Shown here: piece after piece, positions 39,349-49,974 of the stretch
Numbering within the stretch: position 1 is the stretch's first letter
How the letters are laid out: every line of letters begins with the position of its first letter
Sequence record: NC_054928.1
Source of the DNA: Escherichia phage vB_vPM_PD112
Length of the DNA stretch: 64,000 nucleotides
Strand: one strand, 5' to 3'
Program-made: the position numbers and the translations under genes
The notes under the pieces: generated by a model
The model's database searches: none
Told to the model about the DNA's origin: nothing
Seen by the model: the letters and a program-made list of their open reading frames with translations, nothing else

Positions 39349-39822
39349 TTATTTGAACGATTTAACGTACTGAATAGAACCTTTACTATTCACGAAAGCG
39401 ATTTTACCATTTTTATTATACATGGTAGCAGTACGCTGATAACCATAAGTTTGTTTACCAGATTGATAACCAACTAATGCGAAATTATCTTCACCCATTT
39501 TATTCTGTTTAGCGCGAATACGTTCATGTCCATGCGCCATAAGAACCTTAGCATCACCAGTTGCAATGGATCGACGAGTTTTTTCATCTTCAACTGTATT
39601 AACAAAATCATCAAATGAATCAAATTTAGCATGAGATTTATTATACAGTTTTCCATCTACTGCATAATTATATCCCTGTACATCCATCTCAACTTCTGTG
39701 CCATCATCTAATACAGCAGTAATTTTCTGTCCTTTTTTAAATTTCAAAAGATCAGTAAAAGATTCAGCAATAATTTGAGAATTAATAGCTGCTTCAGTAA
39801 TAAATTCTTGATATGTTTTCAT
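39349..39822 (-). CDS. capsid internal protein (IP) with N-terminal capsid-targeting sequence
   Basis: N-terminus MKTYQEFITEAA is the T-even IP targeting leader; early promoter upstream; 157 aa. Confidence 0.7.
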   Translation of the reverse strand: MKTYQEFITEAAINSQIIAESFTDLLKFKKGQKITAVLDDGTEVEMDVQGYNYAVDGKLYNKSHAKFDSFDDFVNTVEDEKTRRSIATGDAKVLMAHGHERIRAKQNKMGEDNFALVGYQSGKQTYGYQRTATMYNKNGKIAFVNSKGSIQYVKSFK

Positions 39823-39862
39823 ATGTTTCCTTTAAATGTAAATATTTTAATTAGTAACTGTG

Positions 39863-39895
39863 AATATACTATCACAGTTCTAGGAGAAAGTAAAC
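39863..39895 (-). promoter_or_regulatory. T4-type early promoter
   Basis: Minus-strand read GTTTACtttctcctagaactgtgaTAGTATATTC. Confidence 0.55.
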
Positions 39896-39899
39896 AACT

Positions 39900-40430
<531 letters not shown>

Positions 40431-45379: not shown

Positions 45380-46045
45380 TTAAAATTTCATTTTTCGACC
45401 TTTAAACCATCCTTCTGGAATTGGGTCAGTTTTCTTAATACGTTTAGAAACTTTTTCATCTAATGAATGAATCCACATCATGCCAAATTGGGAATTCTTT
45501 TCACCTTGTTGGTGTTTATTTCTGGCGTGAGATTCTTTCATTTTATTAATAGTTTCAGGAGTATGATGCTTATTTAAAAATCTGCTATTATTTAAAAATT
45601 TTTCCCTGTATTCAGGAGTTGACCACAAGCGTTTAAATACATTTGAACCATTTTTACGATATTTTTCTTGAAGTAAAATATCATTTTTAAAACGTGACTT
45701 AAACGATTTAGCTCCTTTTAAACTAGCGTCTTTCTTCTGATTTAGCATCTCAGGAATATTTATATGATCCCATCCACCTTCACCGCCAAGTTTTAAATTA
45801 TACACATCAGGTCTATTTAAAAACTCTTCTGTGACAATATTTTTCTCGGCTTCAAGCATAGATTCTTTATCGTCAAAATATTCTAATATTTCTTTAGAAA
45901 AATTTTCTATACCATACCTGTCTTGGGCTCTTTTTAATAATTTACCAGAACCCATATATCCATCATCTAAATTTTCGGTAGAATGCACACCAATATAAAT
46001 TTTATTATTAATTTTATTTGTTATTTTATAAGCGTAATGGAACAT
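45380..46045 (-). CDS. segB: GIY-YIG homing endonuclease SegB
   Basis: 221 aa; YKITNKINNKIYIGVHST...GYMGSG; inside the tRNA cluster as in T4. Confidence 0.85.
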   Translation of the reverse strand: MFHYAYKITNKINNKIYIGVHSTENLDDGYMGSGKLLKRAQDRYGIENFSKEILEYFDDKESMLEAEKNIVTEEFLNRPDVYNLKLGGEGGWDHINIPEMLNQKKDASLKGAKSFKSRFKNDILLQEKYRKNGSNVFKRLWSTPEYREKFLNNSRFLNKHHTPETINKMKESHARNKHQQGEKNSQFGMMWIHSLDEKVSKRIKKTDPIPEGWFKGRKMKF

Positions 46046-46499: not shown

Positions 46500-46586
46500 T
46501 GGTACGAGAAGTGGGACTCGAACCCACAAGGAAATCATTCCGCAGCATTTTAAGTGCTGTGCCTTTACCAATTTGACCATTCTCGC
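46500..46586 (-). tRNA. tRNA-Leu (anticodon UAA), long variable arm, CCA encoded
   Basis: Hand-folded; anticodon loop CTTAAAA. Confidence 0.7.
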
Positions 46587-46592
46587 TCTATA

Positions 46593-47201
46593 TTATTTAT
46601 TACGTGAAAAAGATTGTTCTATCAATTCTGGACACTTTCGTTCTATCCATTTTCTAGCTTTTTGTGGGCTTATACCTATTATTTTAGCAGCTTTACTAAC
46701 CCATCCAAATTTAGAATAATCGATTTTAACTAATTCTTCGTAAATTTCATCAGTTAAAATCTTTTCATTAATATTTACCAGTAAATGATATAATTTATTA
46801 TCATTAGCAATTTTAATGAATCTTTTATAGTTTCCGCCTTTACTTAAACCTAATGAAGTAATTGCAGATGATATAGTAGCCGAATTTAATAGTGCGTTTA
46901 AAATTTCTTCATCACTAACATTATAACGCTTTTTATTATTTTTAATATTTTTACCAGCAAAAGTATCAGTTTGCGAATGGCAATTTGGACATAATAATCT
47001 TAAATTTGATTTAAGATGATTTTTGTTATTTCCATCAATATGGTCTAATTGCAGAACAATATGCTTATTTTGCCATTTTGAAATTTTACAAATTGCGCAC
47101 TCATATGGAAAAATATTTTCTTTTATTATTTTATCTTTCAGCTTTCCTGTACTAAAATTTGGATGTTTTCCTTCAAAAATTTCAGCTAATTTAGTATCCA
47201 T
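46593..47201 (-). CDS. HNH homing endonuclease (Mob-like); probable ATG at 47201
   Basis: HNH motif LQLDHIDGNNKNHLKSNLRLLCPNCH; ends 7 nt from tRNA-Leu. Confidence 0.65.
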   Translation of the reverse strand: MDTKLAEIFEGKHPNFSTGKLKDKIIKENIFPYECAICKISKWQNKHIVLQLDHIDGNNKNHLKSNLRLLCPNCHSQTDTFAGKNIKNNKKRYNVSDEEILNALLNSATISSAITSLGLSKGGNYKRFIKIANDNKLYHLLVNINEKILTDEIYEELVKIDYSKFGWVSKAAKIIGISPQKARKWIERKCPELIEQSFSRNK

Positions 47202-47311
47202 AATATGATTCCCAATTATTAACAAAGGCTCTCAAGCAAGAACCCTTGATGATAGAGGGTATTAATCAGTGCGATATGAGTTAATAATAACAAATAATTC
47301 TTAAAGCATAT

Positions 47312-47601: not shown

Positions 47602-47985
47602 TCAGCCTTCATCAACAATAGTGTGAGTATGGGCATTTACGATTTGCCACCAGTCAAAACTATCGCCAAATCGTTTTGATTTATTGTCTTCAATAATTTG
47701 GCGTAATTCATCTTCTGTTTCAGCATACGCAATCAAATCATCATATCCACCACGAGGATAATAATTATCACCTGCAAAAAGTAAAAAGTTTGGTTTAATG
47801 TTATTGAACTCTTCAAGAGTAATAACTTTTCCTGACGGTTGAACAATCTCTACATATTTATATCCCAATTTTTGAGCAGCATCTACTGCTTCAAGCAGGG
47901 TATCATGAGCCCATCCAATTTGGCAATCTGGCTTTTCAGATGGATTAGCCTGATAATCCGCGTACACTTTATACATTCTATTCAC
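47602..47985 (-). CDS. hypothetical protein
   Basis: 127 aa ORF. Confidence 0.45.
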   Translation of the reverse strand: MNRMYKVYADYQANPSEKPDCQIGWAHDTLLEAVDAAQKLGYKYVEIVQPSGKVITLEEFNNIKPNFLLFAGDNYYPRGGYDDLIAYAETEDELRQIIEDNKSKRFGDSFDWWQIVNAHTHTIVDEG

Positions 47986-48163
47986 CTTTAGAAATTTTAT
48001 CCATAACGATAGCGATTAAACCAATTAAAAATGCTACTACAAGTGAAAAAACATTTTCTGCTGTAGTCAATAATCCGCATATAAATCCAACAAACATTGA
48101 AAAACTAAAAGCGGAAACAGAAATTGCAATAGCAACATTTCGAATTAATTCACAACGTTTCAT
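47978..48163 (-). CDS. small membrane protein
   Basis: 61 aa, hydrophobic. Confidence 0.4.
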   Translation of the reverse strand: MKRCELIRNVAIAISVSAFSFSMFVGFICGLLTTAENVFSLVVAFLIGLIAIVMDKISKGE

Positions 48164-48187
48164 TTTATTCTCCTCAGTAGTTGATAG

Positions 48188-48221
48188 GGTAATAGTATCA
48201 CAACTAAAACCCTATGTAAAC
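48188..48221 (-). promoter_or_regulatory. T4-type early promoter
   Basis: Minus-strand read GTTTACAtagggttttagttgtgaTACTATTACC. Confidence 0.55.
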
Positions 48222-48233
48222 AACTTTGTGAAA

Positions 48234-48491
48234 TTATTTTAAATCTTCTAATCGTTTCTTCATCTTAGAACCGTTCTTAGCGATTTCGCCTGCATCAGAG
48301 CATAATGCTAAAAGCGCTTTAACTTTAGTTTGGTCTCCTTTAAAAGATGAAGGATCGACTGCAGCAGCAAGTTCTTTAATACGAGAGAAAAGACGCTCAG
48401 CTTCAGCTAAAGCCATTCCAAGCTTTACTTCCATACCATGAGAAGATTCAGTAATAGTAGTTTTTGTAGCAAACTCTTTGAAAGTTTTCAT
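48234..48491 (-). CDS. internal protein at the ipI locus (leader MKTFKEF)
   Basis: 85 aa; IP-type leader; position immediately before 57B as for T4 ipI. Confidence 0.6.
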   Translation of the reverse strand: MKTFKEFATKTTITESSHGMEVKLGMALAEAERLFSRIKELAAAVDPSSFKGDQTKVKALLALCSDAGEIAKNGSKMKKRLEDLK

Positions 48492-48517
48492 TTTATTTTC
48501 CTAATTAATTTTGATGA

Positions 48518-48551
48518 GATAATAGTATCACTACCTCATCAACGTGTAAAC
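48518..48551 (-). promoter_or_regulatory. T4-type early promoter
   Basis: Minus-strand read GTTTACAcgttgatgaggtagtgaTACTATTATC. Confidence 0.55.
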
Positions 48552-48563
48552 AACTTTGTGAAA

Positions 48564-49260
<697 letters not shown>

Positions 49261-49261
<1 letters not shown>

Positions 49262-49974
49262 TATAGTACCTTTAGTGTATTTTTAATTTTAGAAAAAAGT
49301 TCTTCAAGAGAACCATCGTTTGTAATTACTAAATCGCCATCACGAATTGGCAATCCAGCTTCTGTAATATGAGTATCATTGGATTTTTGACCAGGACGAA
49401 CTACATGAATTACTGTAGCACCCATCGCCCTAGCCGCATCCATTTCATGATCTTGACGAGTATCAGGAACGATATAATAATCATAACCTGAGTTAAATTT
49501 ATCAAGATAATCTAAAGCAAATAATTTTACCCAATACATGCGGTCGAAGTTATTAACAATCAAATCCGTACCTAGGGCTTGCATCAGACGACGGACTGAC
49601 CATTGATCTTCAATATTATTTATAACGTCAGCAATCTTGTTAAATGCTACGAAATTAACTGCGTCATCAAAAACAAACACACCTTTAATTGGGCTTTTAC
49701 TATTAAGATAGCAAAATGCTTGTTCCATAATCGTAATTACTTCTAATTTAGTCAGATTTAAATTAGTCTCACGATCATAGTCAATTCCTTCAAACTCTTT
49801 ACGAGTTAAACAAGGATAGTCAGTGTTTGCTGCAAATACACCCCATGCATAAGCCAATGCATCCTTAATAGGACCAGCAAGTTGATATTTAACTGCAGAA
49901 TAATTATTCATAATAAAATCTGCAGTAGTATCTTTTCCACTACGCTTTACACCACTTAAAAAGATTAGTTTCAT
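49261..49974 (-). CDS. 1: deoxynucleoside monophosphate kinase
   Basis: 237 aa; P-loop GVKRSGKDT; close to T4 gp1. Confidence 0.9.

Follow-up and report, generated by a model that had tools for sequence, protein, structure and literature searches.

The 85-codon gene between 57B and trna.4 in the window (the whole stretch of 64,000 nucleotides of phage vB_vPM_PD112 that was analysed) is, judged by the full-length match of its product to named proteins, ip5, an already known and very common allele of the T-even phages, which takes the place that ipI occupies in T4. In our analysis, the explanation that accounts for the locus as a whole, and that we consider probable, is that ip5 represents an interchangeable cassette for an internal protein (IP), the product of which would be packaged, cleaved and injected and would then block a host nuclease, probably a GmrSD enzyme of another subtype. 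The features of the locus are listed in Table 1.

Table 1 Features of the ip5 locus. Positions refer to the window.
Feature	Position	Strand	Basis
ip5 coding sequence, 85 codons and TAA	48234..48491	-	ORF list; identity to RB32 Ip5 and the CrRp10 protein; PHROG 3499
Leader, putative capsid-targeting propeptide, codons 1-15, MKTFKEFATKTTITE	48447..48491	-	Alignment with the T4 IPI leader MKTFKEFTSTTTPVSTITE
Predicted mature Ip5, 70 aa	48237..48446	-	Physico-chemical values; AlphaFold model
Shine-Dalgarno AGGA, 8 nt before the ATG	48499..48502	-	Read from the sequence; identical upstream of T4 ipI
69-nt direct repeat, upstream copy	48511..48579	-	Repeat family D1; promoter-like match; hairpin
69-nt direct repeat, downstream copy, serving trna.4	48181..48249	-	Repeat family D1; promoter-like match; hairpin
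57B, upstream neighbour, Acb1 anti-CBASS family	48564..49019	-	Pfam PF23474 Acb1, E=3e-60; position of T4 57B
trna.4 homologue, 61-aa hydrophobic protein, downstream neighbour	47978..48163	-	PHROG 1692, E=6e-35

The window is Tequatrovirus genome. Its gene order is that of T4 (NC_000866), with segB (45380-46045), the tRNA cluster, the homologues of trna.2, trna.3 and trna.4, ip5, 57B, 57A and genes 1, 3, 2, 4 and 53, and the closest DNA match of the ip5 stretch itself was found in Citrobacter phage CrRp10 (99.1%). IP genes lie either between 57B and trna.4 or between denV and e, and ip5 is located in the former position, like ipI in T4. The sequence-only reading, which had placed the gene where T4 ipI lies, was therefore right in this respect, since the 85-aa ORF has 57B and trna.4 at its sides as in T4; the element upstream of trna.4 and the 5' end of this gene differ from T4 trna.4 by a single mismatch. 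That the 85-codon ORF is a genuine gene and no chance ORF can be deduced from the full-length match to PHROG 3499 and from the tblastn matches of its mature part to 493 phage genomes. An ORF of 44 aa on the plus strand (48438-48572) was rejected, because it lacks support and the gene on the minus strand explains the region. Since 57B belongs to the Acb1 anti-CBASS family, two counter-defence genes, 57B and ip5, would lie next to each other at this locus. 57B is called 'RNA ligase' in RefSeq records despite its match to Pfam PF23474 (see Table 1).

The product of the gene is identical in 85 of 85 residues to Ip5 of phage RB32 (YP_803083), the record of which carries the text "similar to RB15 T6 T2 RB70 Ip5, RB69ORF127c, replaces ipI", and it is likewise 100% identical to the 'internal head protein' of CrRp10. 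PHROG 3499 ("internal head protein") matches with E=1e-49 over positions 1-85 of 85, and in UniRef the proteins of T2 and RB70 (Q38378), with 92-99% identity, are named 'Ip5 internal head protein'. The 70 residues of the predicted mature form were found by tblastn in 493 phage records, compared to 292 phage records with mature T4 IPI. Of these 493 records, 267 show at least 90% identity (230 at least 99% and 37 between 90 and 99%), and the remaining 226, which are about 54% identical, are all of the RB69 (Mosigvirus) type. In the same comparison, the mature part was 100% identical in T6 and 98.6% identical in T2. The gene was named ip5 in the 1990s and is annotated in RefSeq phage records. The ip5 genes of RB32, T2, T6 and RB70 resemble the one of PD112 in the protein, in the 57B-trna.4 locus and in the flanking elements; in RB32, however, Ip9 and Ip7 come after Ip5 in this slot, whereas Ip5 stands alone here. 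A word-indexed search of 5.8 billion proteins for relatives returned 5 near-identical proteins and nothing else, an exhaustive phmmer search of 1.84 billion cluster representatives gave 3 clusters, which correspond to Ip5 and two proteins at 40-41% identity, and no bacterial or distant viral relatives were found in either of the two. As far as these searches reach, the Ip5 family is very narrow.

The comparison with T4 IPI divides Ip5 into two parts. Residues 1-7, MKTFKEF, agree fully with those of T4 IPI (NC_000866) and conform to the capsid-targeting N-terminus MKT(Y/F)xEF, and I13-T14-E15 at the end of the leader aligns with ITE19 of T4 IPI and corresponds, at the level of the sequence motif, to the (L/I)-x-E of gp21 that closes a propeptide. 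The leader comprises 15 residues, compared to 19 in T4 IPI, and is retained by every Ip5 allele and homologue, whereas the residues next to it vary. BLASTP aligned residues 1-22 of Ip5 with residues 1-26 of IPI (14 of 26 identical) and nothing beyond, and Ip5 did not match the Pfam family PF11634 (IPI_T4) even at E<=1; T4 IPI itself, which served as a positive control, scored E=7e-54 over its mature residues 20-95. Thus, T4 IPI is like Ip5 with regard to the slot, the promoter region, the ribosome-binding site and the propeptide (MKTFKEF...TITE), and mature IPI* is also similar in size and in its basic pI, whereas the mature domain of T4 IPI shows no detectable similarity to that of Ip5. Both the IP-type leader and the unlikeness of the mature part to T4 IPI had been noticed in the sequence-only reading and hold up, as the alignment with T4 IPI did not reveal high identity. 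Its description of a divergent internal protein is correct in so far as another internal protein occupies the ipI slot, but does not apply in the sense of a diverged form of IPI, because the mature domain belongs to a separate named family, Ip5.

Two more (L/I)-x-E motifs, LAE30 and IKE40, are located inside the predicted helix 1, and the final processed form of Ip5 is therefore uncertain. A scan of the 64-kb window for the motif MKT(Y/F)xEF identified two ORFs only, Ip5 and Ip4, from which the IP repertoire would consist of these two proteins, with no Ip1, Ip2 or Ip3 in the window. Ip4, the second capsid-targeted protein, is encoded at 39349-39822 on the minus strand (157 aa, leader MKTYQEFITE) and adjoins the lysozyme gene e (39900-40394). 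It shows 100% identity to 'ipIV' of phage GiZh and a match to Pfam DUF7412; 469 phage records contain it, among them those of Klebsiella phages at about 69%.

The Ip5 precursor has a mass of 9.3 kDa, and for the 70-residue mature form we computed 7.5 kDa, a pI of 9.2 and a net charge of about +2.6; T4 IPI* comprises 76 residues and has a pI of 9.0. AlphaFold predicts a disordered leader and two long helices (17-44 and 54-84, precursor numbering) that form a hairpin, with a mean pLDDT of 71 and hence moderate confidence, the input alignment being shallow with 5 near-identical sequences. IPI* reportedly has a compact mixed alpha/beta fold, from which the Ip5 hairpin, as modelled with a pLDDT of 71, would differ. 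When the Ip5 model was compared with the PDB and BFVD using Foldseek, no match was obtained at E<=0.001; the matches to the LSD1 tower and to de novo designs were set aside as generic antiparallel helical hairpins, which are uninformative on function. A sequence search of the PDB returned E values of at least 0.76 only (designed helical repeats and NusG), and scans of Ip5 against Pfam and NCBIfam yielded only noise (DUF7890, E=0.08; Paxillin, E=0.16).

RB69ORF127c and related Mosigvirus proteins (P0006, P0007) are true homologues of Ip5, with 38-46% identity over the full length and, by tblastn, about 54% in the mature region; for RB69ORF127c the identity is 46% over the full-length precursor. 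These homologues share with Ip5 the type of leader and both helices (KLGxAL.EA..L..RI.ELA ... EEIAKNG..K.RLE), and they exceed it by 9-12 residues at the C-terminus. RB69ORF127c (2438-2719 of the RB69 stretch analysed) is encoded at the other IP locus, with e and denV as neighbours, and not between 57B and trna.4. Members of one IP family thus move between the two loci and, depending on the genus, sit at either of them, as expected for a shuffled IP.

At the DNA level, the sequence is nearly identical to the T4 ipI locus from the 3' end of 57B through the intergenic region and the ribosome-binding site to the ITE codons of the leader, a stretch that comprises about 150 nt in front of the gene in addition to the leader; a 12-nt indel in the leader is the only difference within this shared 5' part. 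The similarity to T4 collapses across the mature coding part and returns abruptly at TTTCACAAAGTTGTTTACA, which is the start of the element preceding trna.4. This alignment shows a cassette swap between ip5 and ipI. In PMC3012670, PMC2839356, PMC9026906 and PMC12373910, the polymorphism of the ipI locus, with a conserved leader and differing mature proteins, is credited to Repoila et al. 1994.

The two copies of the 69-nt direct repeat that bracket ip5 are 81% identical and contain an exact 31-nt core, GATTTAAAATAATTTCACAAAGTTGTTTACA, at 48545-48575 and 48215-48245. Both copies comprise the last three codons and the stop codon of the respective upstream gene, an A/T-rich stretch, promoter-like boxes (GTTTACA, a 17-nt spacer and TGnTACTAT) and a hairpin around the -10 box. 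In the upstream copy, the sequence of which is also present upstream of T4 ipI, the -35-like GTTTACA is located at 48551-48545 and the -10-like TGnTACTAT at 48527-48522 (promoter-like match at 48550-48522, with TG), and the hairpin spans approximately 48541-48512 (arms TGATGAG/CTCATCA, -15.5 kcal/mol); the hairpin of the downstream copy lies at 48182-48211 (arms ATAGGGT/ACCCTAT, -19.3 kcal/mol). As promoter boxes and a stem-loop occur at either side of the variable gene, the repeats can be regarded as putative PeSL-like elements, and the same architecture is found before Ip4 here and after Ip9 and Ip7 in RB32. The hairpin of the Ip4 element, at approximately 39830-39875, has the arms AACTGTGA/TCACAGTT. 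The arms of these three IP-locus hairpins are unrelated, but their position relative to GTTTAC and TGnTA(C/G)TAT is the same, and it seems that structure rather than sequence is maintained.

Arbiol et al. 2010 (PMC2839356) attributed the shuffling of IPs to PeSL-like elements, which are proposed to mediate it and the first observation of which, at the two IP loci, they credit to Repoila et al., and described the IP-associated elements as analogues, not homologues, of PeSLs, with T4 early promoters and weaker, A/T-rich stems without polyG/polyC tracts. The ip5 repeats fit this description of IP-associated elements that differ from the PeSLs of RB49 and phi1 (PMC2839356), and they are like the PeSL cassettes of these two phages in the upstream stop codon, the A/T-rich stretch, the promoter boxes, the stem-loop over the -10 box, the Shine-Dalgarno sequence and ATG of the next gene and in flanking a variable gene. 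The late-promoter consensus TATAAATA was not found directly upstream of ip5, the nearest occurrence on the coding strand being located at 49617-49624 inside gene 1; because the upstream sequences are nearly identical, T4 ipI is likewise without an adjacent late promoter.

The end of Ip5, DLK plus TAA (48234-48245), is nucleotide-identical to the end of 57B (48564-48575), and both lie within the 31-nt core of the repeat. Taking into account that the Mosigvirus homologues have longer C-termini, the C-terminus of the Tequatrovirus Ip5 seems to have arisen at a recombination junction within the repeat. According to our proposal, ip5 would be exchanged between phages by homologous recombination, for which the promoter, ribosome-binding site and leader would serve on the 5' side and the repeated promoter/stem-loop element on the 3' side.

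With respect to the route of the protein, we propose that the 15-residue leader would direct the Ip5 precursor into the prohead scaffolding core and that the prohead protease gp21 would cut after Glu15 (I-T-E), thereby freeing a basic 70-residue two-helix protein. Mature Ip5 would remain in the head with the DNA, would be injected along with it and, in the cell, would bind and block a host nuclease that attacks the incoming glucosyl-hydroxymethylcytosine DNA. IP propeptides are described to target the prohead core, for which the first 10 residues of IPIII suffice, and gp21 to cut after the Glu in L/I-X-E (PMC9026906). Since the promoter region and the leader of ip5 are so similar to those of T4 ipI, expression, packaging, cleavage after Glu15 and injection would be expected to proceed alike.

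The most probable target of Ip5 would be a type IV restriction enzyme of the GmrSD family, of a subtype other than those of T4 Ip1, Ip2 and Ip3, and we give the inhibition of such another GmrSD subtype slightly better than an even chance. It is our best guess because all three T4 IPs inhibit GmrSD enzymes, each of them one distinct enzyme and without cross-protection (PMC12373910): IPI acts on the GmrSD enzyme of E. coli CT596, and Ip2 and Ip3 act on GmrSD-ECOR21 and GmrSD-ECOR17. The inhibition of a GmrSD enzyme by IPIII is also reported in PMC9391042. T4 Ip2 and Ip3 belong to the class in which Ip5 can be placed by its sequence, i.e. capsid-targeted, injected and non-essential proteins with an MKT(Y/F)xEF leader, whereas they differ from Ip5 in being encoded in the other IP locus (denV-e) and in their unrelated mature sequences. 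The mature form of Ip5, which is small and basic like IPI* (pI 9.2 vs 9.0), provides a supporting analogy. The earlier statement that the variants set which modification-dependent restriction is evaded applies to T4 Ip1, Ip2 and Ip3 (PMC12373910), while for Ip5 it is an extrapolation. In the searchable literature we found neither a paper on the function or host target of Ip5 nor a proteomic report on it.

T2 and T6 are restricted by GmrSD-ECOR21 and GmrSD-ECOR17 (PMC12373910). Given that both phages carry Ip5, lack Ip2 and Ip3 and are restricted nevertheless, Ip5 does not block the ECOR21 and ECOR17 enzymes at its natural dose, nor does it replace Ip2 or Ip3. The CT596 enzyme, the target of IPI*, likewise restricts these two phages. 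That the GmrSD enzymes of ECOR21 and ECOR17 restrict T2 and T6 (PMC12373910) would also agree with Ip5 being an injected anti-defence protein that has its target outside the GmrSD family, be it a further early-acting system directed at modified T-even DNA, by sensing or by attack, or a defence of an unrelated kind. The predicted all-helical hairpin, which has neither sequence nor Pfam family in common with IPI, would be compatible with such a target, as would the neighbouring gene 57B, which encodes an anti-CBASS Acb1 and makes the locus one that is not for restriction alone. We nevertheless consider a non-GmrSD target unlikely, since three out of three IPs with known targets act on GmrSD and this family is enormously diverse, with very specific inhibitors (PMC12373910), so that a further GmrSD subtype is the simpler expectation. 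The combined proposition that Ip5 neutralises a defence not yet tied to any IP (another GmrSD subtype or a non-GmrSD system acting on modified DNA) and has a helical-hairpin fold unrelated to that of IPI* appears doubtful to us when taken as a whole.

In T4 heads, internal proteins number about 1000 molecules and lie embedded in the DNA (PMC3012670), and a small, basic protein such as mature Ip5 (pI 9.2, net charge about +2.6) could in principle be a generic head filler, which would contribute to charge neutralisation, packing or ejection and the allelic variety of which would reflect neutral drift. The net charge is modest, however, and in 230 genomes the mature part has an identity of 99% or more, with both helices kept down to Mosigvirus homologues of 40-46% full-length identity, which suggests a specific fold under selection. 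In addition, every IP tested so far had a specific target (PMC12373910), and we therefore judge a role as mere filler to be distinctly improbable. It is most improbable that the leader is vestigial and that Ip5, made early from a sigma-70-like promoter, acts unpackaged in the cytoplasm of the producing cell, because, even though an early-type promoter-like site is the only one directly upstream, with no TATAAATA, the sequence upstream and the leader are nearly the same as in T4 ipI, the product of which is a documented head protein (PMC9026906), and this leader is kept throughout the Ip5 alleles and homologues, in contrast to the variable residues next to it.

As a sequence finding, ip5 adds nothing to what is known, as the gene is present in hundreds of genomes and the cassette-type polymorphism has been described. 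Its value is rather that of a pointer, given that phage records with Ip5 outnumber those with T4 IPI and that the classic phages T2 and T6 have the gene. With Ip1, Ip2 and Ip3 each matched to a GmrSD enzyme, a target of Ip5 would extend this map and, once found, would help to predict which hosts therapeutic T-even phages can infect.

Apart from the IP genes, the window contains an HNH endonuclease gene at 46593-47225 on the minus strand (PHROG 14736, E=6e-124), which, with its flanks (46500-47311), is located exactly at the site of tRNA-Gln in T4. Of the tRNA-Gln gene, approximately the first 8 nt (TGGGAAT) are left in the alignment with T4, and ARAGORN predicted 7 tRNAs in the whole window, none of which is a tRNA-Gln. 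In Citrobacter phage CrRp10, a homing endonuclease is annotated at the same place as the HNH gene.
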